From an uncultured Acidobacteriaceae bacterium (GTDB lineage Bacteria > Acidobacteriota > Terriglobia > Terriglobales > Acidobacteriaceae): 64,000 bases of DNA. Position numbers and translations under genes: made by a program. The notes below the pieces were generated by a model. It was not told where the DNA came from. It did no database searches and worked only from the letters and a program-made list of their open reading frames with translations. Where the stretch lies: NCBI GenBank assembly GCA_963763975.1, contig CAVXQR010000016.1:240442-304441 (forward strand). Reading direction: 5' to 3'. This document shows positions 5,459 through 59,897 of the stretch, one piece after another (the first letter of the stretch is position 1; each line of letters begins with the position of its first letter).

Positions 5459-5533
<75 letters not shown>

Positions 5534-6033
5534 GTGCGTGGTGCGCTGGCGACAGCGCGTCGTGTTGTGCTCCCATTTTAACGGCAGCGGGCAGCGCCGT
5601 CAAAACGCATTTCCACGCCGATTATCACTGGCCGGTGTGATCCAGTGCGGCCCTTCGGTCAGGCGCGCTCTTCTGTAGGACCACTCGAAAAGCGCCGCAG
5701 GGGCCGAAGCGCTATCTCTATTTGTCGCGGTTTGGCACGGCTGAACAGGCTGCGGAAAAACTCCTCTTTCGCCCGTCTCGTGTCAGGGCACGCCTTCAGT
5801 CGTGCCGATAAGCCATTTATTTTCTCTCTCCCGAGCCGGCTTCAGCCGGCGCCACTCCGCCGGTTCCGACTTTTCCGCAGTCTGTGAAGCCGCGCCCTGA
5901 CACGGGTTTGGCACGATGGCAATGTTCGACGATTGCTGGAGAACGCAGGATTTCGCGCCCGCCCTCTGCTATGTTCATGGCGCCCGCGAGCGCCGCGCGT
6001 GTACTCTAATTCGGATGGGCGAGGAGACTGCCG

Positions 6034-24413: not shown

Positions 24414-24926
24414 GGGTTCGGGCGCAGACATCGGACGCACAGGTTTGCCTGGGTGCAAGCGATAATCGTCCGTCGTAAAAGGGTTTGTCAAGGGCGGCGC
24501 GCATTGCCCGCAAATGAGGAGTGCTTCAACCAGAGGCGAGTGTCGCCTGGCGGGGCGGCGCCTGCGCATTTCCACTCCGCTCAAACGCATACCGGCGCAT
24601 CAGCAGAAAGTAGAGGGCAATGGCTGAAATCACCACCGTGGAAATCAGGCCCACCACCGTACCGAACATGTACTCTCGCGGTGCGCGGAGAGCATGAAGC
24701 GACGCTGAGATCCGCGGCGAGTTTAGAAACCGCAGGTCCCTCGGCTCCGCTTCGCTGCGCTCGGGATGACAAGTCGTAAAGGTGTAGTCGCTGCGCTCGG
24801 GATGACAGGATTTAAAGTTGCGCTGCGCTCGGGATAACAGATCGTTAGGTTGTACCCGCTGCGCTCGAGAGGAAAGTTCGTACAGTGAGCACTCGGGATG
24901 AAGAGGCCTGCAGTGGGTCGCTCGAA

Positions 24927-24957
24927 CTATCCACTATCCACTACCCACTATCCACTG
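24927..24957. repeat. 7-nt array (TATCCAC-type) abutting the ffh stop
   Basis: ctatcca ctatcca ctaccca ctatcca ctgccc. Confidence 0.75.
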
Positions 24958-28463: not shown

Positions 28464-28877
28464 CTAACTAGTCTTGAATGGATTCACAATCCGCACTGCG
28501 AAGTGCGCGAAATCGGCTTCATTTCTCGTGGCAATGATAAGGTCGTACACGCGGGCCGTGGCTGCAATCATTGCATCGCCAAAGAGGTCGGGGGACTTGC
28601 GGTCAAAAATCCGAGCCCATTCCCGAAAACAATGCGTATCCATCGGCAGCACCTGAGCCGACGCCACAACATGATCAATCCAATGCTCCAGTTCGCCAGC
28701 TTTTTCCGGATTCTGTCGCCGGGTCTTCTCCGCTCCCGCCTGCATTTCTCCTAGCGTAACGGCAGACAAGAAGAGCTGGTTTGCGTCTTGCTTGTCGAGC
28801 CAAGCGAGAACGGCCCCATGCGGCCGCGCCCGGCGCAGCTCAGAAATTATGTTGGTATCCAGGAGATATCGGTTCAT
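28464..28877 (-). CDS. vapC: PIN-domain toxin VapC
   Basis: Start MNRYLLDTNIISELRR; PIN acidic residues; 4-nt ATGA overlap with upstream antitoxin. Confidence 0.8.
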   Translation of the reverse strand: MNRYLLDTNIISELRRARPHGAVLAWLDKQDANQLFLSAVTLGEMQAGAEKTRRQNPEKAGELEHWIDHVVASAQVLPMDTHCFREWARIFDRKSPDLFGDAMIAATARVYDLIIATRNEADFAHFAVRIVNPFKTS

Positions 28878-29131
28878 TCGAATTCCGGGATTGGGCGACT
28901 CCGCCATTTACGCCTGTCGGGAAGAGGAATATCAAAACGGGGAGAGGGCGCCAAAAGCAGTTCCTTCATGTTCGGCCGGGCCGCTTGCTGCAGCCGGCGC
29001 CACTCCGCAATGGGAACGAGGACAGCCGTTTCGACACCTCTGCGAGTTACGATTTGGGGTCCTTTTTTAACACTGGCTTCCAGAAATTCGCTGAAGCGGG
29101 CCTTCGCATCCTGCACTGGCCAGGAACTCAT
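28874..29131 (-). CDS. Phd/YefM-type antitoxin
   Basis: MSSWPVQDAKARFSEFLEASVKKGPQIVTRRGVETAVLVPIAEWRRLQ typical Phd/YefM N-terminus; start at internal M. Confidence 0.7.
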   Translation of the reverse strand: MSSWPVQDAKARFSEFLEASVKKGPQIVTRRGVETAVLVPIAEWRRLQQAARPNMKELLLAPSPRFDIPLPDRRKWRSRPIPEFE

Positions 29132-29295
29132 TGGGACATCTCCTCCTGCTGCACCGTTTATTATACGCCTAGTCAGATGACTAGTCAGAATAAAACAGTC
29201 GTTTGGCGAACCGCTGCTTATGCAGATGTGCGCGCACGTCAGGGGCCGGATGGTCGCCGGTTGCAACGAACGGGATTCTCGCGCATCCTATCCGC

Positions 29296-29832
29296 ATGAC
29301 CAATGAGACTGCAATTCTCGGGGGCGGATGTTTCTGGTGTGTCGAGGCCGCGCTCGGCCAGTTGCAAGGCGTCGAGTCGGTGGTTTCCGGCTACATGGGC
29401 GGACGCACCGCCAATCCCACCTATCAGCAAGTGTGCTCGGGAAGCAGCGGGCACGTCGAGGTGGCGAAGATCACCTTCGACCCCGCGGTCATCAGCTTCA
29501 ACGATCTGCTACACGTGTTCTTCTCCATGCACGATCCGACCACGCTCAATCGCCAGGGCAACGACGTCGGCGAGCAGTATCGTTCGGTCATCTTCTACCA
29601 AGGTGAAGAGCAACGGCGCACGGCCGAAGCGGTCATTCGCGAATTGACGGAGGAGAAGGCCTTCGACAAGCCGATCGTCACCGCCATCGAGCCGGCGACT
29701 ACTTTTTATCCCGCCGAGGACTATCACCAGAATTATCTCGCCAACAATCCCATGCAGCCCTACTGCATGTTCGTGGTCACGCCCAAGGTGCAGAAGATCC
29801 GCGAGAAGTACGCCAAGCGGGTGAAGGCGTAG
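29296..29832 (+). CDS. msrA: Peptide methionine sulfoxide reductase MsrA
   Basis: AILGGGCFWCVEA active-site motif; start at MTNETAILGGG. Confidence 0.9.
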   Translation: MTNETAILGGGCFWCVEAALGQLQGVESVVSGYMGGRTANPTYQQVCSGSSGHVEVAKITFDPAVISFNDLLHVFFSMHDPTTLNRQGNDVGEQYRSVIFYQGEEQRRTAEAVIRELTEEKAFDKPIVTAIEPATTFYPAEDYHQNYLANNPMQPYCMFVVTPKVQKIREKYAKRVKA

Positions 29833-29980
29833 CTGTCAGCTGTCGGTTGTCAGTTGTCAGTTGTCCGTTGTCGGTTGTCAAGCCCCAATTCTTGACCTTG
29901 CAAGTGCTGCCCATCCCCAGGGCCGTTGGCTAAAAGCTAAGAGCTAAGAGCTAAGAGCTGACAACTGACGGCTGACGGCC
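29833..29980. repeat. Two 7-nt arrays of opposite polarity (TTGTCAG x7 and CTAAGAG/CTGACNN x7) with potential to form a long stem-loop, after the msrA stop
   Basis: ctgtcag ctgtcgg ttgtcag ttgtcag ttgtccg ttgtcgg ttgtcaa ...(spacer with ttgacc)... ctaaaag ctaagag ctaagag ctaagag ctgacaa ctgacgg ctgacgg. Confidence 0.75.
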
Positions 29981-30016
29981 TCCCGGCTATCCCCTTGATT
30001 CGACGCCAAATCAAAT

Positions 30017-30060
30017 CCTTGACAATTGCTGATTGCAATATCATAATTGCAAATCGTAAT
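30017..30060 (+). promoter_or_regulatory. Sigma70-like promoter (TTGACA-17-CATAAT) overlapped by three ATTGCAAT palindromic half-sites, upstream of the XRE gene
   Basis: ccTTGACAattgctgATTGCAATatCATAATTGCAAatcgtaatATG; ATTGCAAT is self-complementary and repeated. Confidence 0.55.
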
Positions 30061-30552
30061 ATGAAACTGGGAGAGAAATTACGATACCTGCGGCTGGTCG
30101 AAGGCACCCTCCGCGGCCTGGACCGCGAGATGACCCAGCAGGACCTGGCCCGCGCACTGAAGAAGGAACTGGGCCGCGGCCTCAGCCAGTCTTACCTGTC
30201 GCAAATCGAGAACGGCTCGCGGCCGCACCTGACCAACGCCTCCCGCATGTTGCTGGCGCGTTTCTTCAAGGTGCATCCCGGTTACCTGGTGGACGATCCC
30301 GAGGGCTTCCACACTGAACTGACCAGCGACCTGAGGGCCACCGAGGACCGGCTGGACCTGTGGCTGATTGGCGGCGCCGAACAGTTCTCGCGCGACGCCG
30401 AGTTGAGCCGGGCCCTGCTGGAGTTGGCCAAGCATCATGACACTCGCAAGTGTTTGGTGCTGATGGGCGCCATCCTGGAGACGCCGGAGCTGGTGGAGCG
30501 GCTGGCCGAGGTGCTGAAACCCGGGCTGCGCGCGGCCGGAGGTGGGTTATGA
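30061..30552 (+). CDS. XRE-family helix-turn-helix transcriptional regulator
   Basis: N-terminal HTH (EMTQQDLARALKKELGRGLSQSYLSQIENGSR); C-terminal ~100 aa unassigned; stop overlaps NfeD start (ATGA). Confidence 0.7.
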   Translation: MKLGEKLRYLRLVEGTLRGLDREMTQQDLARALKKELGRGLSQSYLSQIENGSRPHLTNASRMLLARFFKVHPGYLVDDPEGFHTELTSDLRATEDRLDLWLIGGAEQFSRDAELSRALLELAKHHDTRKCLVLMGAILETPELVERLAEVLKPGLRAAGGGL

Positions 30553-31154
30553 CGTGGGCGTTGTTTTACCTGGTGTGCTTTCTGGTGGGGGTAACGCTGA
30601 GCGTGCTGTCGTTTGTCGGCGGAAGCTGGCACCTGCCGCACTTCCACGTGCATCTGCCGCACGGAAATCTGCCACATGCGCATGTGCCGCACGGCGCAGG
30701 ACATCCCGCGGGCGGCGGCCACGGCGCGGAGATGCCGTTCATCAACTTCGCCACCATCACCGCATTTCTGGCGTGGTTCGGCGGCTCGGGCTTTCTGCTG
30801 ACGCGCTATTCCATGCTGGCAGTCACGGCGGTAATGCTGATCGCGATTGGCTGCGGACTGGTGGGCTCGACGGTGATCTTCTGGTTCGTCGCCAAGCTGC
30901 TGATGGAGCACGACCGCGAGTTGGATCCGGCGGACTACGACCGCATCGGCGTGCTGGGACGCATCAGCAGCCCCATCCGCCAGGGCGGCACCGGCGAGAT
31001 GATTTTCTCGCAGCAAGGCACCCGCCACACCTGCGGCGTCCGCAGCGATACCGGCGAAGCCATGGCACGCGACGAGGAAGTCATCATCATGCGCTATGAG
31101 AAAGGGATTGCTTATGTACGGAAGTATGAAGAAATGGCGAAAGACAGGGGCTAG
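30549..31154 (+). CDS. NfeD-like membrane protein (short form) with His-rich loop
   Basis: 2-3 TM helices, C-terminal OB-fold-like segment (GVLGRISSPIRQGGTGEMIF...VIIMRYEKGIAYVRK); loop HLPHFHVHLPHGNLPHAHVPHGAGHPAGGGHG; precedes SPFH gene as in NfeD-SPFH operons. Confidence 0.7.
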   Translation: MTWALFYLVCFLVGVTLSVLSFVGGSWHLPHFHVHLPHGNLPHAHVPHGAGHPAGGGHGAEMPFINFATITAFLAWFGGSGFLLTRYSMLAVTAVMLIAIGCGLVGSTVIFWFVAKLLMEHDRELDPADYDRIGVLGRISSPIRQGGTGEMIFSQQGTRHTCGVRSDTGEAMARDEEVIIMRYEKGIAYVRKYEEMAKDRG

Positions 31155-31310
31155 GGACTAGGGGCCAGGGACTAGGGGCTAGAGACTCGGGACTGGGACT
31201 CGCAGTCAGCTGTCAGCCGTCAGCCGCCCCGAGCTGAAGGCTGAGAGCTGAGAGCTAATAGCTAAGAGCTAATAGCTAAGAGCTAATGGCTGATGGCTAG
31301 TTGCTAATTG
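31155..31310. repeat. ~22-unit 7-nt array filling the NfeD-flotillin intercistronic spacer (consensus drifts GGACTAG, then AGTCAGC, then AGCTAAG)
   Basis: ggactag gggccag ggactag gggctag agactcg ggactgg gactcgc agtcagc tgtcagc cgtcagc cgccccg agctgaa ggctgag agctgag agctaat agctaag agctaat agctaag agctaat ggctgat ggctagt tgctaat. Confidence 0.8.
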
Positions 31311-31332
31311 CAGCTTTTTCCAAGGAGGCACT

Positions 31333-32805
31333 ATGGGTTTCCACATTCCAACCGAAGCACTGATCATTGCCTGGACGCGGTTGCCGCGCTCCTGCTGCTG
31401 ATGGCGGTCTTCGCCAAACTGTATCGCAAGGCCGGACCCAACGAAGCGCTGGTGGTGTATGGCTTCCGCGGTCCTCGCATTATCAAGGGCCACGGCACCG
31501 TCATCATGCCCATGGTGGAGAACTGCCGCGAGCTCTCCCTGGAGCTGATGTCCTTCGACGTCGCGCCCCAGCAGGACCTCTACACCAAGCAGGGCGTGGC
31601 CGTGACCGTGGAAGCGGTCGCGCAGATCAAGGTCAAGTCAGACCCGGAATCGATCATGACGGCGGCCGAGCAGTTCCTGACCAAGACGCCGCCCGATCGC
31701 GAGGCCTTGATCCGCCTGGTGATGGAAGGCCATCTGCGCGGCATCATCGGCCAGCTTACGGTGGAAGAGATCGTCAAGCAGCCGGAGATGGTGGCCGACC
31801 GCATGCGCACCACCTGCGCCGACGACATGAACAAGATGGGCCTGGAGGTGATTTCGTTCACCATCAAGGAAGTGCGCGACAAGAACGAATACATCACCAA
31901 CATGGGACGTCCGGACATTGCGCGCATCAAGCGCGACGCCGACGTGGCCACCGCGGAAGCCGATCGCGATACCGCCATCAAGCGCGCCATCGCGCTGCGC
32001 GAGTCGGCCACTGCCAAGGCGCAGGCCGACCAGGAACGCGTCGCTGCCGAAACCGCTTCCCTTGCCCGCCAGGCCGAGGCGCAACGTGACCTCGAAGTGA
32101 AGAGGGCCACCTACAACGAGATGGTGAAACGCCAGCAGGCGCAGGCCGACAAGGCGTACGAGATCCAGACCAACGTGATGCAGCAGCAGGTGACCGCCGA
32201 AGCGGTGAAGGTGCAGCAGGTGGAGAAGGAGGCGCAGGTCAAGGTGCAGGAAGCCGAGATCAATCGCCGCGAGAAGGAGCTGATCGCCACCGTGCTGAAG
32301 CAGGCGGAGATCGAGCGTCAGCGCATCGAGACGCTGGCCGACGCCGAGCGCCAGCGCACCATCGTGGAGGCCGAAGGCCGCGCCAGCGCCATCCGCGCGC
32401 AGGGCGAAGCCGAAGCCGAGATCATCTTCAAGAAGGGTGACGCTGAGGCCCGCGCCATGAACCTGAAGGCCGAGGCCTTCCAGGAGTACAACCAGGCCGC
32501 GGTGGTGGACAAGCTGACTCACCGGCCTGCCGGAAGTAGTGAAGGCGCTGGCCGCGCCGTTGGCCAACGTGGACAAGATCACCATCGTGTCCACCGGTAA
32601 CGGCCATTCCGCCGGGATGAACAAGATTACCGGCGACATTGCCGAGATGGCGGCACAGGTGCCGGCGCTGTTCGAGGCGCTGTCGGGCATGCAGATGTCG
32701 GAGCTGCTGGGCAAGATCCGGACCATCGGCGACAAGAGCCCCAAGCCGGATCAACTGCCGCCAGGAGATGACGGCAAGTCGAAAGCGGCCGGCGCTGGGA
32801 AGTAG
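31333..32805 (+). CDS. Flotillin/SPFH-family protein (YqiK/FloA-like), interrupted by two 1-nt indels (~31376 and ~32517)
   Basis: AAGGAGG RBS then ATG 31333 (MGFHIPTEALIIA) in frame 1; body LLLLMAVFAKLYRKAGPNEALVVYG...SPFH domain plus long EA-rich coiled coil in frame 0 (ORF 31308..32600); C-terminus LTGLPEVVKALAAPLANVDKITIVSTGNG in frame 1 (ORF 32539..32805). Confidence 0.8.
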
Positions 32806-32954
32806 ATGGCTTTGAAAGGGCACGGCTTCAGCCGTGCCGTTAGCGGCCCAGGAAGACTGGGCTTTAGCCCCTGCGGATTTGGAAAGGGCCTACGGCAAAT
32901 GCCCCGCCCTAGCCAAAACCAGGCTAGAACGGGGCACCCAGGTGGTTTTCTCGC

Positions 32955-33015
32955 TGGCGAAGAGCGAATGGCGAATAGCGAAATCAAGCTGACGGCTGAC
33001 AGCCGAGAGCTAAAA
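32955..33015. repeat. 7-nt array (GCGAATN merging into CTGACNG and AGCTAA) between flotillin and pspA, next to a partial family-B element (32901-32948)
   Basis: tggcgaa gagcgaa tggcgaa tagcgaa atcaagc tgacggc tgacagc cgagagc taaaagg. Confidence 0.7.
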
Positions 33016-33025
33016 GGAGCTGGTT

Positions 33026-33685
33026 ATGGCATTACTGGATCGAGTAGCAACCCTGGTACGAGCGAACCTGAATGACCTGGTGGATCGCGCCGAGAATCCG
33101 GAGAAGATGCTGAAGCAGGTCATCCTCGACATGGAAAACCAGTTCATGCAGGTGAAGACGCAGGTGGCCATCGCGCTGGCTGACCTGCACCTGCTGGAGA
33201 AGAAGCGCAAGGAAAATGCCGACAAGCACGCCGACTGGATGCGCAAGGCGGAGCTGGCGGTGGACAAGAAAGACGACGAACTGGCGCGCGCGGCGCTGGA
33301 GCGGGCAATGAGCTTTCAGCAGACGACTGAGAGCTTTGCGCAGCAGATTGCCGACCAGCAAGTGCAAGTGGAGTCGCTGAAGACGGCGCTGAAGAAGCTG
33401 GAGCTTAAGCTGGCTGAGGCGCGTGCCAAGAGCGATCTGCTGATTGCGCAGCATCGCCGCTCGCGCACCGCCAATCGCGCGGCCGCGGCGCAGGCGGGGC
33501 CGTCGGGCGAGAACCGCACCTTCGAACGCATGCGCACCAAGGTGCAGCGCGAACAGGCGCTGGGCGAAGCTCACAGCGAACTGATGGGCGACGACGTCGA
33601 AGGCCGGCTGCATGCCATGGAGCGCGAAGAGAAGATTGACGCGCTGCTGGAGGAGATCAAGTCGCGGAAGCGGCTGAGCGCGTGA
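33026..33685 (+). CDS. pspA: PspA/IM30-family membrane-stress protein
   Basis: MALLDRVATLVRANLNDLVDRAENPEKMLKQVILDMENQ canonical PspA N-terminus; 219 aa coiled coil; AAGGAG RBS. Confidence 0.85.
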   Translation: MALLDRVATLVRANLNDLVDRAENPEKMLKQVILDMENQFMQVKTQVAIALADLHLLEKKRKENADKHADWMRKAELAVDKKDDELARAALERAMSFQQTTESFAQQIADQQVQVESLKTALKKLELKLAEARAKSDLLIAQHRRSRTANRAAAAQAGPSGENRTFERMRTKVQREQALGEAHSELMGDDVEGRLHAMEREEKIDALLEEIKSRKRLSA

Positions 33686-33688
33686 GGC

Positions 33689-33733
33689 GGCAATTAGCAA
33701 TTAGCCGTTAGCCGTCAGTAATTAGTACTTAAC
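33689..33733. repeat. 7-nt array (GCAATTA/GCCGTYA) after the pspA stop
   Basis: gcaatta gcaatta gccgtta gccgtca gtaatta gtactta. Confidence 0.7.
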
Positions 33734-33872
33734 GCTGGGATGACCGGAAAGACGGCCTGTCATCCCGAGCGAAGCGCAGCGAAGTCGAGGGATTCTGCGG
33801 TTCGAGACGGCGAGCGCCCGTTGAGCGTCCCTCCCGCGCTACAATGCTTACAGTTTCACCAGAGGGATCGGA

Positions 33873-34082
33873 ATGCTGTTTCACGTTACGTTGACCCACG
33901 CCGAAGACGGCTGGATCGTCGCCGAATGTCCTGCTCTACCAGGCTGCGTATCGCAGGGCCGCGATCAAAAAGAGGCCCTCGATAACATCAAGGAGGCCAT
34001 CACTGCCTGGCTGTGGGCGGAGGACCAAAAAGCCCTGTTGGCCCGCCCTGACCAGGACACTTCGATCGTCGTGGCAGTGTGA
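33873..34082 (+). CDS. hicB: HicB-family antitoxin
   Basis: MLFHVTLTHAEDGWIVAECPALPGCVSQGRDQKEALDNIKEAI (HicB/UPF0150). Confidence 0.7.
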   Translation: MLFHVTLTHAEDGWIVAECPALPGCVSQGRDQKEALDNIKEAITAWLWAEDQKALLARPDQDTSIVVAV

Positions 34083-34361: not shown

Positions 34362-34961
34362 ATGGCGGATTCGCTCTATCTCAGCATCTGGTTTCCCAGC
34401 TTCCGCGAGGGCGAAATGCTGTCGCGAACGGCCGGCGTGCTGCGGCAGTTCCTGTACTCCAGCGTGCGCGAGGGCATCACCTACCTGTCGGTGCATCCGG
34501 TGGCGTGGACCGAGCCCACGGTGCTGGAACGCCGCTTCAATCCCGGCATCTCGCCGGAGGAAGCGGTGGACCTGGTGCGTGAATTTCAGCATGACGACTT
34601 CGCCTTCGTCTTCGAGGCCTTCTGGGACCTGTGGATGCCGAATGAAGACGAGCACGGCGAGCCCTGGACGGAGCGGCCGTCGGCGGTGAAGTTTCTGGTG
34701 CACGGGCTGCAATTCGACGAGGGCATCTACAGCGAAGACGGCCACATCGAGGTGGACTTCGGCCTGGACAGCGCCTTTCTGGCCGAGGGCCGCGAGCTCG
34801 CCCCCTTCACCGAGAAATACCTGCGCATCAATGTGGCCAAGCTGATCGCCTTCTCCACCGCCGTGGAGCGCTACTGCTCCATCAGCGGGCGCGTGCTGTG
34901 GTCGGAGAGCGACCAGAACCTGGCGCAAAAGCTGGTCGCCAAGCTGCAACAAACGCAGTGA
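34362..34961 (+). CDS. Hypothetical protein
   Basis: 199-aa ORF, coding-like GC3, no recognised motif. Confidence 0.4.
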   Translation: MADSLYLSIWFPSFREGEMLSRTAGVLRQFLYSSVREGITYLSVHPVAWTEPTVLERRFNPGISPEEAVDLVREFQHDDFAFVFEAFWDLWMPNEDEHGEPWTERPSAVKFLVHGLQFDEGIYSEDGHIEVDFGLDSAFLAEGRELAPFTEKYLRINVAKLIAFSTAVERYCSISGRVLWSESDQNLAQKLVAKLQQTQ

Positions 34962-36922: not shown

Positions 36923-37054
36923 ACTCCGGCTGAACCCCGGCTCAGGATCAATTACAAGGGACGTCTGACGGCACAGCCGAAGCTGTGCCCTTTCAAACCC
37001 AGCAAGAAAGCCCCGGCCATGGACCGGGGCTTCTGATTGCATCATTCGCTAAAG

Positions 37055-39790
37055 CTACTTGGTCCTGCCGCCTTCCACCTTCAGCTCGGCGCTGGCGCCC
37101 GCCTGCGCCGCCGCCAACCGCGCGGTCAGCACGCGGTAGGGCGAGCAGGACACGTAGTTAAGCCCAGCATGGCGCAGAATTCCACCGACGACGGGTCGCC
37201 GCCATGCTCGCCGCAGATGCCGATCTTGATGTTGGGCCGCGTCTTGCGGCCCTTCTCCACGGCCAGCTTCACCAGTTGGCCCACGCCCTCGCGATCGAGC
37301 ACGGCGAACGGGTCCTGCTTCAGAATGCCTTCGGCGAGATAGGCCGTCAGAATCTTGCCGCAGTCGTCGCGCGAGAAGCCGAAGGTGGTCTGCGTCAGGT
37401 CGTTGGTGCCGAAGCTGAAGAACTCGGCTTCCTTGGCGATCTCGTCTGCCGCCAGCGCGGCGCCGGCAACTCGATCATCGTGCCCACCAGATATTCGACT
37501 TTCTGCTCCTTCTTGGCGAATACTTCTTCGGCGACGCGGCGAACGATGGCAGCCTGATTGGCCATCTCCTTCACTCCGCTAGTCAGCGGGATCATCACCT
37601 CAGGCTTTACCTTCATGCCTTCCTTGCAACCTCGACGGCCGCTTCGAAGATGGCGCGCGCCTGCATCTCGGTGATCTCCGGATACGTGATGCCCAAGCGG
37701 CAGCCGCGCAGTCCGAGCATGGGGTTGAATTCATGCAATCCTCCACACGATTCAGCAGCGTGCGCAGCTCTTTCAGCTTCGGCGACTTTCTTCTTCGTGA
37801 TTTCCAGCTTGGCGATTTCCACCATCAGCTCTTCGCGCCGCGGCAGGAATTCGTGCAGCGGCGGGTCGAGCGTGCGGATGGTGACCGGCAAACCGTCCAT
37901 GGCGTTGAACAGGCCGAAAAAATCGTTGCGCTGCATGGGCAGCAGCTTGCGCAGCGCGGTGCGGCGGTCCTTCTCGTTGTTGGCCAGGATCATGGTGCGC
38001 ACGTGCGGCAGGCGGTCCTTGGCGAAGAACATGTGCTCGGTGCGGCACAGCCCGATGCCTTCGGCGCCGAACGCGCGCGCCTGCAAGCGCATCGCGCGGG
38101 ATGTCGGCATTGGCGCGAACGCCCATGTGGCGGAACGGCTCGGCCCAGCCCATGATCTTCGACAGCTCAGGATCGTCGGGCGAGGCCGCACGGTTTTCGG
38201 CCTTGCCTTCGATGACGCGGCCGGTGGTGCCGTCGAGCGAAATCCAGTCGCCTTCCTTCAGCGTCTTGCCGGCAGCGCGAATTTCGCGCGCTTTCTCGTC
38301 CACTTCAATGTCGCCGGCGCCGGCAACGCAGCACTTGCCCATGCCGCGCGTGACCACCGCCGCGTGGCTGGTCATGCCGCCGCGCGAGGTCAGAATGCCG
38401 GACGCCACTTCCATTCCGGCGATGTCCTCGGGCGTGGTTTCGCCGCGCACCAGGATCAGGCTGGCCGTTTTGTCCTTCGCAAACTTCTCCACCGCTTCTT
38501 CCGCGGTGAAAACGATCCGTCCCACGGCCGCGCCCGGCGAGGCAGGCAGGCCGGTGGCCAGAACTTCGATGTTCACGCCCTTCTCGTCGAGGCGCGGCAC
38601 CAGGAAGTCGTAAAGCTGATTGGGCTCGACGCGGAAGATGGCCTCTTCCTTGGTGATCAGGCCTTCTTCCACCATCTGGATGGCGACCCGCACGGCGGCG
38701 CGACCGGTGCGCTTGCCGTTGCGCGTTTGCAGCATGTAGAGGCGGCCGTCCTGAATGGTGAACTCGAAGTCCTGCATGTCGCGATAATGCTTTTCCAGCC
38801 GCGTGGTGATTTCGCGAAGCTGGTTGTACACATCGGGCTGGATCTTCTCGAGCTCGGAGATGTGTACCGGCGTGCGGATGCCGGCGACCACGTCTTCGCC
38901 CTGCGCGTTCATCAGGAACTCGCCATAGAACTCTTTCGCGCCGGTAGCGGGATTGCGAGTAAAGCCCACGCCGGTGCCGCTGGTCTCGCCCAGATTGCCG
39001 AAGACCATGGCCTGCACGTTGACCGCGGTGCCCAGCATGTCGTCAATGTTGTTGATGCGGCGATAGGTCTTGGCGCGATCGTTCAGCCAGGAGCGGAACA
39101 CGGCATCGCGCGCCATCACCAGTTGCTCGTGCGGGTCCTGCGGGAAGTCGCGCTTGGCGTGCTTCTTGATCACCTTCTTGTATTCGGCAATCACTTCCTG
39201 CAGCGCCTTGGCGTCAAGATCGGTGTCCAGCTTGGCTTTGCGCTGTTTCTTCTTGCCGTCGAAAACTTCCTCGAACGCGCTCTTGGGGATTTCCAGCACC
39301 ACGCTGCCGAACATCTGGATAAGCCGGCGGTAGGAATCATAGGCGAAGCGCGGGTTGCCGGATGCGCTTGGCCAGGCCTTCCACCGACTGATCGTTCAGG
39401 CCGAGGTTGAGGATGGTGTCCATCATGCCGGGCATGGAAAACTTGGCGCCCGAGCGCACGCTGACCAGCATCGGATTATCGGCGCCGCCGAGTTTCTGCC
39501 CCTGCAATTGCTCCAGGTGCTTGAGGGCTTCGTCCATCTGGCGGTTCACTTCCGCCGAGACGCCGCCGGGTGCGCATGTATTCGCGGCAGGCTTCGGTCT
39601 GGATGGTGAAGCCCGGAGGCACGGGAAGCCCGGCGTTGGTCATCTCGGCCAGGCCGGCGCCTTTGCCGCCCAGATCGTCCTTCATCTTGCCGTGACCTTC
39701 GGCGTGTCCGTCGCCAAAGAAGTAAACGTACTTGGTGGCTTTGCCTGCGGGGGCCGCAGTGCGTTCCAACTCGGCTGTGCTAGTGGTCAT
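37055..39790 (-). CDS. ppdK: Pyruvate phosphate dikinase, fragmented into at least 6 frames by homopolymer indels (~39569, ~39361, ~38080, ~37616, ~37460, ~37160)
   Basis: Pieces: [10 protein letters not shown]...[23 protein letters not shown] (N-term), [53 protein letters not shown], 400-aa central ATP-grasp/His domain, [21 protein letters not shown]-utilising domain, C-terminus ...[21 protein letters not shown]...[22 protein letters not shown]; junctions at C/G or A/T runs. Confidence 0.8.
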
Positions 39791-42236: not shown

Positions 42237-42307
42237 AAGAGCTATTAGCAATTAGCTGTTAGCTATTAGCAAGCAAGCTGCCAGCCGTCAGCTATCAGCT
42301 ATCAAAC
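42237..42307. repeat. 7-nt array (AGCTATT/CAGCTAT) in the glyQ-glyS intercistronic spacer; an inverted family-B partial copy follows at 42372-42420
   Basis: agctatt agcaatt agctgtt agctatt agcaagc aagctgc cagccgt cagctat cagctat. Confidence 0.7.
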
Positions 42308-42438: not shown

Positions 42439-43515
42439 CTATGCTTTGCTGGCTGCCAACTGCTCGGCTTTGGGCTCGGGCTGTTTCGGCGTCGAACTCT
42501 CCGCCTGCGCCTTCTGCTGGTCCACGTACGCCTTGGCAACGCCGACGGCCAGCGCACGAATACGTGCGATCACGCCGACGCGCTCGGTCACGCTGATGGC
42601 GCCGCGCGCGTCCAGAATGTTGAACAGGTGCGAGCACTTCAGGCATAGGTCGAAAGCGCCCAGCACCGGAAAGCGGCGGATCGCCGCGAGACGCTCTTCG
42701 CTATTCGCCATTCGCTGTTCGCCAGAGGATCGCTCTTCGCCGTTCGCTGTTCGCTTTTCGCCAGAATCCGTCGAAGGCGCAGGCGACGCCAGCGCGCGAT
42801 ATTCCTCCAGCAGCGCCTGGCATTCTGCTTCATAGAGCTCCAAATGTTTCCAGGCCTTGGCCACGTCGGCCATCTCGAAGTTGTACACCGAGAATTGCAG
42901 CTCATCCTGCAAGCGAATCTCGCCGTACTTCACCGCACGGCCGTCGGGGCCGACCACCCAGGTGATGTCGTAGATCGAGTCCACATCCTGCAAAAATGCG
43001 GCGATGCGCTCCAGCCCATAGGTCAGCTCAGCCGAAATCGGATCGAGATCAATGCCGCCGCACTGCTGGAAGTAGGTGAACTGCGTGATCTCCAGGCCGT
43101 CGAGCATCACCTGCCAGCCGATGCCCCACGCGCCCAGCGTCGGCGATTCCCAGTTGTCTTCCTCGAACTTGATGTCATGCTGGCGCAGGTCAATGCCGAT
43201 GGCGGCCAGCGATTGCAGGTACAGTTCCTGCACATTCTCCGGCGGCGGTTTCAGGATGACCTGGTACTGCATGTGTTTGAACAGCCGGTTAGGATTCTCG
43301 CCATAGCGGCCGTCGGCCGGACGCCGCGAAGGCTGCACGTAGCCCACGCGATAGGGCCGCGGGCCCAGCACGCGCAGGAAAGTTTCCGGCGCCATGGTTC
43401 CGGCGCCCACTTCGACATCGTACGGCTGTTGCAGGACGCAGCCATTCTCAGCCCAGAAAGTTTGCAGGCGAAGCACCAACTGCTGGAAGGTCAACGGATT
43501 TTGCGAGGATGGCAA
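42439..43515 (-). CDS. glyQ: Glycine--tRNA ligase alpha subunit with 26-aa in-frame low-complexity insertion
   Basis: [33 protein letters not shown]...; insertion [25 protein letters not shown] encoded by 7-mer repeats at 42692-42769. Confidence 0.9.
42692..42769. repeat. Duplicated 39-nt block of 7-nt repeats (NNTTCGC x4 plus linker, twice) inside the glyQ coding sequence
   Basis: cgctcttcgctattcgccattcgctgttcgccagagga / tcgctcttcgccgttcgctgttcgcttttcgccagaatcc; shares 20 nt with the intergenic array at 32955. Confidence 0.75.
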
Positions 43516-44664: not shown

Positions 44665-45150
44665 GGATTTCTACCGGCCACGCAGGTACATGCCGGAACT
44701 GCGCATCGGAGGCCGCGTCAGGGTATGCCAAATTGTGGAAGCTTGGCCGCACACTACCGCGAACTTTGATTTTACTGGCTGGGATTGCGATGTGCAAAGC
44801 CGAAGAAACCTTGCGATCCTCGAGTTCCGATATGAGCTTAAGTGCGGCCAAAACATGAGTACGGGCGCGACCTCTGGTCGTGCCGGCCATGGCCTTCTTC
44901 TACCATCGGGGCTTCAGCCCCAGTGCCTTGCGCCTGCGCAACTAAGTGAACTGTGTTGGAAGCTTCTGGACAGCGATTTTGCAGCCTCGCAGTGAAGGTC
45001 CGCTTCAGCCCCTTTCCGGGGCTCAGGGGCTAAAGCCGATTTATCTAATTAATCGGAATCGGCACGACCAAGGTCGTGCCCTTACTCATTATTTCGCCCG
45101 CCAGAATCTGTCCAATATCCAGCGCCCTAAGAAAAAAGCGCGGAAGCCCG

Positions 45151-47208: not shown

Positions 47209-47258
47209 AAAGCTGAATGCCAAAAGCTAAGAGCTAAAAGCTAAGAGCTATCAGCTTC
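47209..47258. repeat. 7-nt array (AAGCTAA/GAGCTAA) abutting the rho stop
   Basis: aagctga atgccaa aagctaa gagctaa aagctaa gagctat cagcttc. Confidence 0.7.
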
Positions 47259-50933: not shown

Positions 50934-51096
50934 GCGGGAGCCGCACGCCTACCACAGTGGTTACAAGTGTACAGATTCCGCGTGGACTCGATGTGACCGC
51001 TCTCACCAGGCCGCGTGACAAGGAAGATGAAGCCGTGCCGTTTAGAAACCCGGTGCGCGCGTTCGGCGGGCACCCGCGCCCAAGCCGACGTTGCGC

Positions 51097-51170
51097 CCAT
51101 GTCGATGCCGTGCTCATGCCGATGCCGTGCTCATGCCGATGTTGCGCCGATGCCGAGGCCGTGCCGATGC
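51097..51170 (+). repeat. Tandem ~17-nt repeats (atgccgtgctcatgccg x ~4) in the long comM upstream intergenic region
   Basis: gtcgatgccgtgctcatgccgatgccgtgctcatgccgatgttgcgccgatgccgaggccgtgccgatgcg. Confidence 0.6.
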
Positions 51171-51539
51171 GAGCGCCGGAGGCGCGACTTAGTTTAGCCC
51201 AGCGTGCAGCGCCCTCTTTTGGCGCGGAACGCTGGGTACGCTCGCCCTAGGAATTTCGGAGTGCCGTAGGCACGGTGCCTTTCACTCGATCTACCGGAGG
51301 CGATAAATTCACCATTTCGCGGGTAACCGGACTGCGTGGGAATGGTCCGGGTGCAGTCCGCAAAGCGGACGGCATATCTTAGCCCGCCGTTTCAACGGCG
51401 GGTGAGCGCCATTAAGATTTCGAGTCCCCCGGGGACGGCAGGAGTCGCGGCAGCGACGCCACGCCTTTCGCGGCGCAAACCCGGCCTGGATGGGGCACCC
51501 TCGGAACGGTAGCCTGAGCCACCCACCGATGGCATCGAT

Positions 51540-56937: not shown

Positions 56938-56973
56938 AAGTTGTCGGTTGTCAGTTGTCGGTTGTCGGTAAGA
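56938..56973. repeat. 7-nt array (GTTGTCG-type) upstream of the ECF sigma operon
   Basis: aagttgt cggttgt cagttgt cggttgt cggtaag. Confidence 0.7.
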
Positions 56974-57371
56974 AAAGTCCCCAGAGGGAAATGAGGGTGA
57001 CCTATGGAGGTGCCAGTCGGGGCTGAGGGGAAATCGGGTGAAACACGACTGCAGGCGGAACCTACGTCAGAAAAGAAAAGTGGCGGAACTCTGTCCAGAA
57101 GCGCAGCGCCCAGTTGCACATCCAGAAGACCTTGCGGCCCAAGAATTCCGCCGACTCACGGACGACAGTGCGGTGGTTCGACCGGCACCTGCCTTCCTGC
57201 GCGCCGCTCTGCTGAAGCAGCGCTCAAACTTAATGAATGCATTCTTACATCGCGCCGCTGCGGCTGATATACCCCGTCCGCCGTATCCGGCCTACAACTT
57301 CGGTTGTAGAAGCGTCCGCCCCGACCCGAAGCGCGATCGGAGCGGACCATCCATGGACTGACTCGCGCTTA

Positions 57372-59671
57372 CACCGTGGCCGCCACAGCTTTTGCCGCCT
57401 TGCCGGCCAGCGGCGCGCTGCATTCCTGCGCGTCGACAACGGCAATGGTGGTCATGTTGACGATGTCCTCGACCTCCACACCCTTCTGCAGCAGGTGTAC
57501 CGGCTTGGCCATACCCGCCAGGATCGGGCCGACGGTTTCCGCCCCTGCCGATGGTCGCCAGCAGCTTGCAGGCGATGTTGGACGATTGCAGGTCGGGGAA
57601 AATCAGCACATTGGCTCCGCCCTTCAGCGCGGAGAACGGGAAAGCGGCTTCCAGACGCTGAGGATTGACGGCGATGTCGCCCTGGATTTCGCCGTCCACG
57701 ATGAGCGAAGGATCGGCGTAGCGTGCCAGTTCGGCGGCGCGCCGCATCTTCTCGCACTGCGGATGCTTGGTGCTGCCGAAGCTGGAGAACGACAACATGG
57801 CCACGTGCGGTTCAACGTTGAAGCGGCGGGCTTCCTGCGCGGCGCACAAAGCGATCTCCGCCAGGTCTTCCGCCGTGGGCTCGATGTTCACCGTGGCATC
57901 GGCCAGGAAGTACAGGTCGCCCTTGCGGGTGATGACCAGGTACACGCCCGACACCTTGTGGATGCCTTCGCGGACGCCGATGACCTGCAATGCCGGACGA
58001 ATGGTTTCGGGATAATTCTGGGTTACGCCAGCCACGATAGCGTCGGCATCGCCCATGCGGACCATCATGGAGCCGAAGATGTTGCGGTCGTTCATCATCT
58101 CGTCGGCTGCGCCCAGGGTGACCCCGCGGCGCTGACGGAGCCGGTAGAACTCGCGCACGTAATCCTGGCGGCGGGCCGCGGTTTCCGGCTCAACGATGAT
58201 CGCCTGGTCGAGGCAGATGCCCAACTCGGCGGCGTTGCGCTGGATTTCGTTGGTCCGTCCCAACAGCACGGGAATGGCAATCTTCTCTTCGATCAGCACA
58301 TGGCAGGCGCGCAGGATCTTCTGGTGCGAGCCTTCGGGAAAGACCACACGCTTGGGATCGGCCTGCGCCTTGTGGACCATCAGGCGCATCAACTCGTGGG
58401 CTTTGCCCAGCCGCGTCTCCAGTTGCTCGCGATACTCGTCGAGATTCACCGGGGTGCGGGCCACGCCGGTATCCATGGCGGCCTTGGCCACGGCCGCAGG
58501 CTTCCCACACCAGCACGCGCGGATCGAATGGCTTGGGGATGATGTAATCCACGCCGAACTTCAGGGTCTCGACGCCATAGGCGCGGCAGACCGAGTCGGG
58601 CACGTCTTCCTTGGCCAGCGCCGCCAGGGCGTAGGTAGCCGCCAGCTTCATCTCTTCGTTGATGCTGGTAGCATGCACGTCGAGCGCGCCGCGGAAGATG
58701 AAGGGGAATCCCAGCACGTTGTTCACCTGGTTGGGATAGTCGGAGCGGCCGGTCGCCATGATGATGTCGTCGCGCACCGCGCGGGCATCGTCGTAGGTAA
58801 TCTCGGGATCGGGATTGGCCATGGCGAACACCACCGGCCGCGGCGCCAGCGAGCGAATCATGTCCTGGGTGAACGCGCCCTTCTTGGAGAGGCCCAGCAG
58901 CACATCGGCGCCCGTGGCAGCGTCCGCCAGAGTACGCATGGTGGTCTCTTTGGCGAAGCGCTCCTTGTAGGGATTCATGCCTTCTTTGCGGCCTTTGTAA
59001 ACCACGCCCTTGGTGTCGACCAGGGTGATGTTCTCGCGCTTCACGCCCATGCAGACGTAGTGCTCGGCACAGGCGATGCCGGACGCGCCGGCTCCGTTGA
59101 CCACCACCTTGATCTGCTCCAGCTTCTTGCCGGTCAACTCAACCGAATTGGCCAGGGCAGCGCCCGAGATGATGGCGGTGCCGTGCTGATCGTCATGGAA
59201 GACCGGGATCTTCATGGTCTTCTTCAGGGTTTCCTCGATGTAGAAGCACTCGGGAGCCTTGATGTCTTCCAGGTTGATGCCGCCAAAGGTGGGTTCAAGC
59301 AACTGGCAGGCCCTGATGATTTCGTCGGGATTTTTGGTGTCGAGCTCGATGTCGAAGACGTCAATGTCGGCGAATCTCTTGAACAGGACGCCTTTGCCTT
59401 CCATCACCGGCTTGCCGGCGAGCGCGCCGATGTCGCCCAGTCCGAGCACCGCGGTCCCGTTGGTGACTACCGCTACCAGGTTCCCCTTGGCGGTGTACTT
59501 GAATGCGTCGTTGGGATTCTTTTCGATCTCCAGGCATGGGTCAGCAACGCCCGGCGTGTAGGCCAGGCTGAGATCGCGCTGCGTGCGACACGGCTTGGTG
59601 GACACGACTTCTATCTTGCCCGGCCGTTTCCCCTGGTGGTAGTCGAGTGCATCCTGCTTGGTGATAGACAT
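57372..59671 (-). CDS. maeB: NADP-dependent malic enzyme (malic enzyme plus PTA-like domains), interrupted by two 1-nt indels (~58497, ~57546)
   Basis: [22 protein letters not shown]... malic domain to DPRVLVW; [21 protein letters not shown]... PTA domain to KLLATIG; C-terminus [41 protein letters not shown] in a third frame. Confidence 0.85.
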
Positions 59672-59897
59672 TACGGCCTCCAGAATATGAATCGTCGAAA
59701 TATGAGTGCGGCGAGAACGCTCCAGCGCGGCAGGTTAGCAAAAGGGATAGAGGTGCGACGTGAAAGTACCGTGAAATCGGAAATCCCCAGGAACACACCG
59801 CTGCCGGGCCGGAGTCGGCTCCGGTATTGAGCATGTGCTTCTTATTGCCGCAGCAATAGTGCGGGGGTCACAGGAGGGTGTGATGGAGGACACCGGA

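Follow-up and report, generated by a model that had tools for sequence, protein, structure and literature searches.

A conserved XRE–NfeD–flotillin–PspA gene module with a clearly resolved promoter-overlapping operator in an Acidobacteriaceae bacterium

The 64,000-nucleotide stretch of Acidobacteriaceae DNA analysed here (the window) contains a four-gene membrane-stress operon that is real, conserved in hundreds of soil bacteria and, as such, ordinary. New are the clearly resolved operator at its promoter and the finding that two probable sequencing errors interrupt the flotillin gene. Our preferred reading, to which we assign a probability of about three in four, is that the locus encodes an envelope-stress response of the PspA/flotillin type, organised as one autoregulated operon and expressed as one transcript.

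Results

Gene content and conservation

Open reading frames, Pfam matches and, for NfeD, the modelled fold and homologs place genes for an XRE (HTH_3) regulator, an NfeD protein, an SPFH/Band_7 flotillin and a PspA_IM30 protein in series on the plus strand (Table 1). An NfeD with the same histidine-rich loop is encoded in more than 520 species-representative genomes, from which 78 related loci with sufficient flank, belonging to Terriglobia and Binatia, could be used for comparison. The initial annotation had proposed a co-directional XRE–NfeD–flotillin–PspA module with a promoter overlapped by a palindromic operator, and this proposal has strong comparative support: the order and strand of the four genes are kept in all 78 loci. 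Its view of the arrangement as less familiar did not stand, as the arrangement is very widespread and has already been described in silico for Acidobacteriota (PMC9239133).

Profile searches matched no protein of the module to the PspF (σ54 enhancer-binding), PspB or PspC families. Among the PADLOC anti-phage defence models, NfeD, flotillin and PspA had no match, and the sole match of the module was a weak, generic HTH hit (E = 2.5e-4).

Table 1 Features of the module and its flanks (window positions)
Feature	Position	Strand	Basis
msrA–XRE spacer	29834..29979	+	TRF; RNA fold −76 kcal/mol, z = −6.56
Conserved block immediately 5′ of the −35 box, CCAAATCAAATCC (CCAAATCCAGTTC in relatives)	30006..30018	+	Alignment of 80 upstream regions
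σ70-type promoter, TTGACA-17-CATAAT	30019..30047	+	11/12 consensus match
Operator O1, ATTGCTGATTGCAAT, 15-bp near-palindrome over the promoter spacer	30025..30039	.	Position −36 from ATG in 61 loci
Operator O2, ATTGCAAATCGTAAT, −10 box end to start codon	30046..30060	.	Position −15 in 51 loci
XRE-family regulator, 163 aa	30061..30552	+	Pfam HTH_3 PF01381, 1.7e-7
NfeD2/YuaF-YqiJ-type membrane protein, 201 aa	30549..31154	+	Fold and homologs
nfeD–flot spacer arrays: (AGGGACT)n, then (GTCAGCC)n, (GCTGAGA/GCTAAGA/GCTAATn)n	31146..31308	+	
SPFH2/FloT-like flotillin, 490 aa after repair	31333..32805	+	Band_7 and Flot profiles
flot–pspA spacer: REP-like GC hairpin GGCACGGCTTCAGCCGTGCC at 32819–32838, more hairpins	32806..33025	+	
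PspA/IM30 family protein, 219 aa	33026..33685	+	PspA_IM30, 1.7e-34
Short heptamer arrays past pspA: GCAATTA, TTAGCCG	33690..33715	+	

Promoter, operator and the XRE regulator

The annotated σ70-type promoter is present upstream of the XRE gene, where TTGAC[AGT] recurs in 75 of 80 loci. Across 80 upstream regions, the promoter and the operator pair form a sharp phylogenetic footprint, and conservation is lost further upstream. The block adjoining the −35 box might act like an UP element or provide a second binding site.

The promoter had been described as overlapped by three self-complementary half-sites. The palindromic overlap is borne out, but there are not three copies: ATTGCAAT occurs once exactly (30032–30039), once with seven of eight positions matching (30046–30053) and once as a partial ATTGC at 30025. 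Two 15-bp near-palindromes, O1 and O2, give a better description of the operator; they are 21 bp apart, a distance found exactly in 56 loci. Matches to the operator motif are concentrated at this promoter, with 129 of the 159 found in 962 kb lying in the 120 nt that precede the XRE ATG; in the 64-kb window the 15-mer occurs as O1, O2 and a single site with three mismatches at 44784–44798.

The regulator itself scores 31.6 bits against HTH_3 (cut-off 23). Its residues 1 to about 80 form an EspR-like HTH (profile E = 2e-5 to EspR over residues 25–83), which is followed by a four-helix C-terminal domain restricted to the family. No fold match explains this domain, and the structure model of XRE is of only moderate confidence (pLDDT 69.7). 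The helical C-terminal domain probably mediates oligomerisation. The XRE start codon, 13 nt past the −10 box, lacks a Shine-Dalgarno sequence. The transcript is predicted to begin a few bases before this codon, and the mRNA would therefore be leaderless or nearly so.

We propose that XRE regulates its own gene, as suggested by the two operator sites conserved at the promoter of this family. Could XRE instead be an activator or a dual regulator, as ClgR is for M. tuberculosis clgR-pspA-pspMN? The closest functional precedent, the ClgR-type cHTH regulators that adjoin pspA, is indeed an activator (PMC11237479), and the conserved block upstream of the −35 box could serve as an activator site. However, the palindromes occupy the −35/−10 spacer and the DNA between the −10 box and +1, where repressors classically bind, and a promoter already this close to consensus should need no activation. 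We consider an activating or dual role quite improbable and infer repression.

The ATGA overlap of the XRE stop and nfeD start codons (stop ending at 30552, start at 30549) was annotated correctly. It is found in 53 of 77 loci, the remaining credible junctions being at most 14 nt, and would couple the two genes translationally. The notion of XRE as a separate unit with its own terminator before nfeD is contradicted by this overlapping or adjoining arrangement and by the absence of a terminator-like site on the plus strand.

NfeD and PspA

The product of the second gene comprises TM1, a histidine-rich loop, TM2, TM3 and a C-terminal OB-fold barrel. In the AF2 model, helices span residues 2–25, 64–86 and 89–121, and the OB-fold domain has a pLDDT of about 80. 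Foldseek matched the model to 2k14 (YuaF, E = 1.4e-5), 8z5g (YbbJ of the QmcA–YbbJ cage, 2.9e-4), 3cp0 (4e-3), 3wwv (7e-3) and 2exd (0.14). The annotation of a short NfeD after XRE is upheld by fold and by homologs; the protein's own sequence matched no curated profile in Pfam, NCBIfam or a PDB sequence-profile search. Homologs with 63–99% identity carry a precomputed PF25842 (NfeD_TM) assignment. By its modelled fold, the protein is of the YuaF/YqiJ type. An SPFH gene follows its gene directly and in the same orientation, here and in 78 of 78 relatives.

The loop with 10 histidines (residues 28–58, nt 30630–30722) is present as annotated. It is not an oddity of one gene, however: sequence comparison identifies it as a conserved feature of the family. 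The loop is probably cytoplasmic and may, as initially suggested, bind metal.

The gene after the flotillin encodes PspA, as had been noted. The protein covers profile positions 2–218 of 220 of PspA_IM30 (PF04012) with 119.8 bits against a cut-off of 33.9, and falls below the threshold of the E. coli-type PspA equivalog TIGR02977 (112 bits against 243).

Frame breaks in the flotillin gene

An SPFH/flotillin with a coiled coil after NfeD was correctly recognised as a protein, but it is not encoded by a single intact reading frame. Referred to an intact 488-aa ortholog with 93% identity, residues 3–14 lie in frame 2, 15–394 in frame 1 and 395–488 in frame 2. The two breaks are the loss of a single nucleotide between 31376 and 31377 and the gain of one at about 32517–32518. 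The intact versions of the two junctions would read TGGACNGCGG and CTGATCACC. The protein has a membrane anchor, a coiled coil and a Flot domain. Its SPFH/Band_7 domain (PF01145) scores 110.8 bits against a cut-off of 23.6 (E = 1e-31), and the Flot domain (PF15975) passes its cut-off of 27 bits only upon repair (34.9 bits, compared to 14 bits for the unrepaired fragment). The best NCBIfam model, FloT NF058507, gives 275 bits against an equivalog cut-off of 700; judged by these scores, the protein is a member of the family and not a FloT equivalog.

The frameshifts are most likely indel errors of the assembly, because other housekeeping genes of the window, ppdK and maeB, are likewise split. 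Two indels in one gene, neither inside a long homopolymer, could also point to a genuine pseudogene or to programmed frameshifting, and so to a module that is decaying or unusually decoded. We think this very unlikely: (i) the −1 and +1 events occur at non-slippery sequences, (ii) the 380-aa core between them is free of stops and 93% identical to intact orthologs, (iii) ppdK and maeB in the same window are split too, and sporadic splits hit different genes across related MAG loci, with the flotillin gene itself split in about 10 of 80, and (iv) an Illumina-derived close relative has the base that is absent at 31376/7 and with it an intact N-terminal junction.

Intergenic spacers and heptamer arrays

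The spacers between the genes had been described as filled with 7-nt arrays. Period-7 tandem arrays do occur in every spacer of the module, but they are not a property of the module: repeats of this known class are spread through intergenic DNA across the genome. In the window, six strict arrays of three or more units have period 7 and none has period 5, 6 or 8–11, and all six are intergenic. The msrA–XRE spacer contains (TGTCAGT)n at 29834–29880, (GCTAAGA)n at 29929–29959 and inverted (GCTGACG/ACTGACA)n at 29957–29979, which together form a long hairpin. In the nfeD–flot spacer, inverted GTCAGC/GCTGA arrays make a hairpin and a GCTAAnn array stops just before the flot Shine-Dalgarno sequence. 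Degenerate heptamers of the flot–pspA spacer comprise GCGAATA (32955–32982) and GCTGACn just before the pspA Shine-Dalgarno sequence. The heptamers past pspA, read on the opposite strand, correspond to the GCTAATT/GGCTAA type upstream of flot.

Similar intergenic repeats of period 7, which are frequently arranged as inverted pairs and vary among close relatives, are the cyanobacterial STRR, Xanthomonas GGGAATC and Beggiatoaceae TAACTGA repeats (PMC4692102, PMC4679880), from which the units found here, of the GCTRAnn or GGGACTA type, differ. The literature searched contained no report of intergenic heptanucleotide repeats in Acidobacteriota.

Rather than being products of neutral slippage, the arrays might be functional, either as low-affinity XRE sites or as unstructured, A/U-rich standby or insulator sequences and hairpins that set the flot:nfeD expression ratio. 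(ATTGCTA)n resembles the operator ATTGCAA-ATTGCAA-T, and arrays account for 17 of the 30 operator-motif matches outside the promoter. Among the 78 loci, 22 of 33 strict period-7 arrays, most commonly with the unit GCTAATT, fall in the nfeD–flot spacer, and in many species arrays adjoin the Shine-Dalgarno sequences of flot and pspA. However, the loci share phylogenetic history, and such an enrichment does not represent independent events. Furthermore, arrays of the same kind lie in unrelated intergenic regions across the window, the unit at the same position changes between close relatives (GGGACTA here, GGGTAGT in L082), and the Binatia orthologs have no arrays. We consider a function for the arrays unlikely.

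The spacers also bear on the number of transcripts. In Terriglobia they are long, variable and structured, with medians of 180 nt (nfeD–flot) and 294 nt (flot–pspA) and lengths of up to 1759 nt; because of this, internal promoters, processing or attenuation may operate there. Additional genes may sit in both gaps, such as the gene for a 57-aa protein with two TM segments that 37 relatives have in the flot–pspA spacer and that is absent here. Scaffold and effector proteins are, moreover, usually required in far greater amounts than a repressor. These properties would suit two or three transcription units, namely an autoregulated XRE–nfeD pair with flot and pspA transcribed from spacer promoters or uncoupled by processing of hairpin RNA. 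We regard such a division as doubtful, since the plus strand of the spacers displays no promoter-like or terminator-like site, the genes of the compact Binatia operons are just 20–45 nt apart, gene order and strand are invariant, and the operator 15-mer has only the one imperfect match elsewhere in the window. Preferring the single operon, we infer co-transcription across the long, repeat-filled spacers.

Discussion

Proposed mechanism

Combining these observations, we propose the following model. The σ70 promoter would drive a single transcript through all four genes. XRE would bind the two near-palindromes, which lie two helical turns apart between the −35 spacer and +1, and repress its own operon. 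NfeD and the flotillin encoded after it would act together in a cage or microdomain attached to the membrane. PspA, the ESCRT-III-like effector, would be brought to this site, where it would seal damaged membrane or stabilise it. Upon membrane stress, repression would be lifted by a co-encoded membrane-associated protein that sequesters or inactivates XRE, by analogy to PspA–PspF and ClgR–PspA.

Comparison with known systems

In E. coli pspF-pspABCDE, PspA is the effector of the envelope-stress response, and proteins of the system itself control the regulator. The present locus differs in having no σ54 enhancer-binding protein, PspB or PspC, and in placing an XRE HTH at a σ70 promoter.

EspR of M. 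tuberculosis, a nucleoid-associated protein that regulates virulence and not Psp, is of all solved structures the one most closely related to the XRE HTH (PDB 3qf3, 3r1f). Like XRE, it joins an N-terminal HTH to a C-terminal helical domain, which dimerises EspR; the fold search between the two was non-significant (E = 0.34) and their C-terminal domains are unrelated in sequence. In M. tuberculosis clgR-pspA-pspM-pspN, a Cro/XRE-type HTH gene heads an operon of pspA and membrane-protein genes (PMC11237479). By gene content, its partners are PspM and PspN instead of NfeD and flotillin, and ClgR is a short activator-type cHTH protein without the C-terminal domain of XRE.

NfeD2–SPFH2 operons are established in B. 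subtilis yuaF-floT(yuaG) and E. coli yqiJ-yqiK (PMC2636767). There, as here, a three-TM OB-barrel NfeD is encoded directly upstream of a flotillin composed of an anchor, a coiled coil and a Flot domain. Unlike those pairs, the one described here is preceded by a coupled XRE gene and followed by pspA, and its NfeD carries a conserved HLPHxHxHxPH loop; yuaFGI is controlled by SigW.

B. subtilis pspA-ydjGHI likewise unites pspA, an SPFH gene and membrane-protein genes in one operon, and there PspA depends on the SPFH protein for reaching the membrane (PMC8581546). By analogy, SPFH-dependent recruitment of PspA likely applies here. The B. subtilis operon has the reversed order, with pspA first, is under SigW control and lacks an XRE regulator, and its soluble SPFH protein YdjI relies on YdjG and YdjH for anchoring.

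A precedent for the whole gene set is the PspA/Band7-Flot/NfeD/HTH network predicted in Acidobacteriota by Popp et al. (2022, mSystems), who worked at the level of domains on 19 acidobacterial PspAs, 58% of them with Band7_Flot, and proposed the HTH protein as the regulator of the operon (PMC9239133). Band_7/Flot, NfeD and an HTH regulator are all found in the pspA neighbourhood of our locus, to which the present analysis adds the promoter and operator, the predicted leaderless start, the histidine-rich loop, the C-terminal domain of XRE and the occurrence in Binatia.

Gene content and conservation of the module

The four genes that follow msrA in the same orientation encode an XRE regulator, a small membrane protein, an SPFH/Band_7 flotillin and a PspA_IM30 protein. 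Their order and the ATGA overlap that joins the first two, both proposed in the initial annotation, are borne out by the open reading frames and domain matches. By profile score, the flotillin and PspA are ordinary family members, both below the equivalog cut-offs. We found no terminator-like site on the + strand between 29700 and 34400, no second promoter-like site within the module in a promoter scan, no known RNA in its spacers in Rfam and no match of the module to a defence system in PADLOC.

Features of the window and, where a locus is named, of related loci
Feature	Position	Strand	Match or remark
tRNA gene	5462-5533	-	
REP-like GC-rich hairpin AAGGGCACGGCTTCAGCCGTGCC	5784-5806; 32816-32838; 36970-36992		Intergenic
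36-nt tandem repeat	24752-24882		3.8 copies
Heptamer arrays in unrelated intergenic regions	24926-24956; 42240-42304; 42692-42761; 47211-47256; 56940-56969; 59899-59929; 60360-60403		(TAGTGGA)n at 59899 and (CTATCCA)n at 60360 form an inverted pair ~430 nt apart
PIN-domain (VapC-like) toxin and Phd/YefM antitoxin pair	28464-29266	-	Directly upstream of msrA
msrA	29302-29832	+	PMSR 5.8e-68
Promoter TTGACA-17-CATAAT	30019-30047	+	11/12 match
Operator near-palindrome, 15 bp	30025-30039		ATTGCTGATTGCAAT
Operator near-palindrome, 15 bp	30046-30060		ATTGCAAATCGTAAT
XRE/HTH_3 protein, 163 aa	30061-30552	+	1.7e-7
Membrane protein (NfeD), 201 aa	30549-31154	+	ATG overlaps XRE TGA
(ATTGCTA)n array	31296-31310		Before the flotillin gene
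SPFH/Band_7 protein (flotillin)	31333-32805	+	1e-31
Reading expected of an unbroken flotillin gene, first break	31370-31382	+	TGGACNGCGG
Reading expected of an unbroken flotillin gene, second break	32510-32524	+	CTGATCACC
PspA_IM30 protein	33026-33685	+	1.7e-34
GTCATCCCGAGCGAAGCG..GAGGGAT-type element	33758-33793		After pspA
HicB-like/UPF0150 antitoxin-like ORF	33873-34082		Just under Pfam cut-offs
199-aa protein	34362-34961		No Pfam match
Pyruvate phosphate dikinase	37126-39639	-	PPDK_N domain divided at ~39340-39395
17/34-nt tandem repeat GCCCATGCCGATGCCGT	51074-51170		~4.5 copies
Acido-Lenti-1 sRNA	51355-51402	-	43.3 bits (gathering score 37)
Malic enzyme/PTA fusion (maeB-like)	57292-59734	-	Divided at ~58190-58560
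57-aa two-TM protein	L001 8489-8662		Between flotillin gene and pspA
Accessory 114-123-aa gene	L002 6778-7122; L035 5102-5473		Also in L004, L016, L026, L027, L041

When one genome was scanned for each species, at least 520 loci with an NfeD relative were returned, the best 80 of which come from Terriglobia/Korobacteraceae, Binatia and one Verrucomicrobiia-labelled contig; some of these Binatia loci are titled ‘delta proteobacterium’. In all 78 loci with enough flank, tblastn recovered the four genes co-directional and in the order of the window, with identities to the window of 60–91% for XRE, 50–74% for NfeD, 79–95% for flotillin and 59–85% for PspA. The last 4 nt of the XRE gene are shared with nfeD in 53 of 77 loci, and the junction leaves at most 14 nt in the other credible cases. 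Because order, strand and overlap are conserved, the regulator is clearly neither an unrelated divergent neighbour with its own terminator nor part of a neighbourhood missing from relatives, the two outcomes against which the initial annotation had set its proposal. The nfeD–flotillin gap measures 20–1759 nt (median 180 nt) and the flotillin–pspA gap 20–843 nt (median 294 nt), both shrinking to 20–45 nt in Binatia. The operon is among the most conserved and abundant loci of uncultured soil Terriglobia and Binatia. A tblastn search of 72,556 plasmids with the XRE and NfeD proteins gave no match.

The module has further, less constant members. Between the flotillin gene and pspA, 37 of 81 related loci encode a 57-aa protein with two TM helices (..GAVGGLLVAxLLAAVRGEQF*), making a five-gene module in many relatives; the window lacks this gene in 32806-33025 and has REP-like hairpins there instead. 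The 57-aa protein resembles Pfam TM7S3_TM198 below threshold (22 bits, cut-off 29). Some Terriglobia carry an accessory 114-123-aa gene (..YNQLVVEVADP.. / ..RIIVEVKNAP..) between nfeD and the flotillin gene, and some Binatia carry it between the operator pair and XRE, which places the operators at about −477 and −456; the resemblance of its product to the bacterial PH domain bPH_5 was non-significant (E 0.098). The 199-aa protein downstream may be a conserved neighbour, since it follows pspA in about 35 related loci.

Six Binatia-labelled loci (L019, L027, L030, L035, L036, L065) are 80–85% (XRE) and 89–90% (flotillin) identical to the window, above a Sulfotelmatobacter-like clade of Terriglobia (62–66 and 79–83%). 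In most of these six loci the GC content of the module is 1–7 points below that of at least one flank; in L065 and L027 one flank is not higher in GC than the module. The identities and the lower GC content suggest that the module has moved laterally between soil phyla or that bins are mislabelled. The Acido-Lenti-1 sRNA elsewhere in the window fits an acidobacterial origin.

Promoter and operator architecture

The promoter described in the initial annotation was recovered by the promoter scan. The three half-sites said to overlap it resolve into one exact ATTGCAAT (30032-30039), one 7/8 copy (30046-30053) and a partial ATTGC at 30025, and the operator is better described, from its sequence, as two 15-bp near-palindromes 21 bp apart. 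With up to 3 mismatches, ATTGCAAATTGCAAT matches in the 64 kb only the operator pair and a weak site at 44784. Taken together, the half-sites can also be read as a TTGCAAT-N6-ATTGCAA palindrome with the −10 box at its centre.

This architecture is shared by relatives. When the 110 nt before the XRE start were aligned for 80 loci, unrelated upstream sequence was seen to change abruptly to ..CCAAATCCAGTTC TTGACA TTGCAAATTGCAAT AnTATA ATTGCAAATTGTAAT ATG. Within 962 kb, 129 of 159 matches to the 15-mer (at most 3 mismatches) fall in the 120 nt before the XRE ATG, with a site at −36 in 61 loci, at −15 in 51, and two sites exactly 21 bp apart in 56. The more distant Sulfotelmatobacter-like clade keeps the palindrome as TTGCGAT-N6-ATCGCGA. 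Covariation between the recognition helix and the operator was looked for between clades and not found: the predicted helix, SQSYLSQIE, is invariant across them and the half-site core TTGCnAT is kept. The operators span the spacer of a near-consensus promoter and its −10 to +1 stretch, a position that argues for autorepression by the XRE protein.

The XRE ATG of Terriglobales always lies 13 nt past the −10 box and has no Shine-Dalgarno sequence, from which we infer that the regulator mRNA should be leaderless or nearly so in this order; the Binatia leader is about 45 nt long.

The XRE and NfeD proteins

Homologs of the XRE protein, typically 174 aa long, are extremely conserved, with 83–94% identity among the top matches. 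In the predicted structure (pLDDT 69.7) four helices come after an HTH. Among solved structures, EspR is closest by sequence profile (E 2e-5, HTH only); it was also the best hit of a fold search that returned no significant match (E 0.34). Searched alone against 1.84 billion proteins, the C-terminal 72 residues retrieved 177 cluster representatives, all of them short XRE-like proteins or fragments and none of another architecture, so that by sequence comparison this domain is confined to the XRE family of the module. It probably serves in oligomerisation or partner binding.

The membrane protein matched nothing in sequence-profile searches of Pfam, NCBIfam and the PDB, so that a predicted structure and a fold comparison were needed to assign it. 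The AlphaFold2 model (pLDDT 66) comprises TM1, a disordered loop (residues 26–62), TM2, TM3 and a five-stranded barrel that matches the NfeD domain of YuaF (2k14, E 1.4e-5), the YbbJ subunit of the SPFH-NfeD cage QmcA-YbbJ (8z5g, 2.9e-4), and 3cp0, 3wwv and 2exd. These matches to solved domains identify the modelled protein as a YuaF/YqiJ-type NfeD2. More than 7,796 homologs are found in the protein collection, where PF25842 NfeD_TM is assigned to all among the matches listed and some, from Candidatus Korobacteraceae, bear the name NfeD family protein. NfeD2 proteins are established operon partners of prokaryotic flotillins (PMC2636767).

The ten histidines noted in the loop between TM1 and TM2 are all present (residues 28, 31, 33, 35, 38, 43, 45, 48, 52 and 58). 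Across 18 NfeD homologs P30, H31, H35, P37 and H38 are invariant, with H28 and H33 nearly so, and Binatia and a distant Terriglobia clade also have 6–10 loop histidines; by this alignment the loop is a conserved trait of the family, not a peculiarity of the window gene. As the model combines a cytoplasmic OB domain with three TM helices, the loop is expected on the cytoplasmic side. It could plausibly bind metal or sense pH. A bolder proposal, to which we give little credence, is that the conserved HLPHxHxHxPH loop, predicted to lie at the membrane surface, acts as a sensor gating the coupled XRE protein. In such a scheme, cytoplasmic acidification or a proton leak would protonate the histidine cluster, or the cluster would capture released Zn, Ni or Cu; the membrane or protein contacts of the loop would change and thereby capture or release the XRE repressor by way of the C-terminal domain specific to its family. 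If true, PspA/flotillin repair would have a new, self-contained signalling route, one that has apparently spread between soil phyla.

The flotillin reading frame

The flotillin gene, taken as a single gene in the initial annotation, is broken in the window. The intact 488-aa ortholog of the syntenic contig L001 (93% identical) aligns to it in three pieces: residues 3–14 in one frame, whose ATG at 31333 follows a good AAGGAGG, residues 15–394 in a second frame, and residues 395–488 back in the first. At the first break a base is missing between 31376 and 31377, where the closely related L082, which comes from an Illumina metagenome, reads TGGACAGCGG and the window TGGACGCGG; at the second, CTGA[C]TCACC contains an extra base at about 32517/8. 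Restoring one base and removing the other yields a 490-aa flotillin above the Pfam cut-offs for Band_7 and Flot.

Programmed frameshifting would account for the two shifts, but neither site is slippery, orthologs have an unbroken frame, and splits are found in other genes as well. A pseudogene would likewise show breaks, and against it stand the stop-free core between them, the other split genes, and similar sporadic splits in about 10 of 80 related MAG loci. Considering (i) the two housekeeping genes in the window that are also frame-split, (ii) the splits in related loci, (iii) the absence of slippery sites and (iv) the stop-free core, the breaks are probably assembly errors. The split housekeeping genes, pyruvate phosphate dikinase (whose main ORF also lacks its C-terminal domain) and the malic enzyme/PTA fusion, indicate about one assembly indel per 10–15 kb. 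The apparent flotillin pseudogene, most likely a sequencing artefact, is relevant to annotators of assembly GCA_963763975.1.

Heptamer arrays and other repeats

The 7-nt arrays reported in the spacers do exist, and they are confined to period 7: the window has six strict arrays, all intergenic, and none of period 5, 6 or 8–11. They are not special to the module: about 20 period-7 arrays (TRF) are scattered over the 64 kb and hence belong to the genome. Inverted arrays pair as long hairpins (msrA–XRE spacer, −76 kcal/mol, z = −6.6; nfeD–flotillin spacer, z = −2.5). The 78 related loci hold 33 strict period-7 arrays and at most one of any other period; 22 of the 33 lie in the nfeD–flotillin spacer, most often as GCTAATT units right before the flotillin Shine-Dalgarno sequence, and GCTGACn arrays precede that of pspA in many species. 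In a ~93%-identical relative the array found at this position is built of GGGTAGT in place of GGGACTA and the spacer is otherwise unrelated; a 99.7%-identical contig matches the window except for one G. The commonest array unit before the flotillin gene here and in relatives, (ATTGCTA)n, is one base per unit off the operator, itself the direct repeat (ATTGCAA)2T, and such arrays make up 17 of the 30 operator-motif matches outside the promoter.

Intergenic heptanucleotide repeats have been described in cyanobacteria, Xanthomonas and Beggiatoaceae and put down to polymerase slippage (PMC4692102, PMC4679880); a literature search found no report of them in Acidobacteria. The three REP-like hairpins compare with none expected by chance, and the core of the 36-nt tandem repeat is related, as reverse complement, to the element after pspA.

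Model and comparison with known systems

Membrane maintenance depends centrally on PspA and flotillin systems, and we know of no account of their regulation outside Proteobacteria, Firmicutes and Actinobacteria. We propose, with a probability of about three in four and judging from the comparative evidence, that the module is an XRE-autorepressed operon, probably read as a single transcript, whose flotillin/NfeD membrane platform would recruit PspA to the damaged membrane. Stress would relieve repression when a co-encoded protein titrates or inactivates the XRE protein, an induction step drawn purely by analogy. The proposal supplies a precise regulatory model (promoter, two operators 21 bp apart, leaderless regulator mRNA and NfeD coupling), and the alignments define a conserved histidine motif in the NfeD family.

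The initial annotation regarded the arrangement as less familiar, but it is known from earlier work. In an in-silico reconstruction of Psp networks, Popp et al. (2022) found Band7_Flot neighbours for 11 of 19 acidobacterial PspAs (PMC9239133), Ravi et al. described a ClgR cHTH-PspA-PspM/N system (PMC11237479), and B. subtilis PspA needs the SPFH protein YdjI to reach the membrane (PMC8581546); we found no further papers, beyond Popp et al., that join Acidobacteria, flotillin and phage shock protein. The window thus holds no new kind of system; it holds a well-defined locus that is very abundant in uncultured soil bacteria. New with respect to the earlier work are the operator architecture, the predicted leaderless start, the conservation of the histidine motif and of the XRE C-terminal domain, and the breadth of occurrence.
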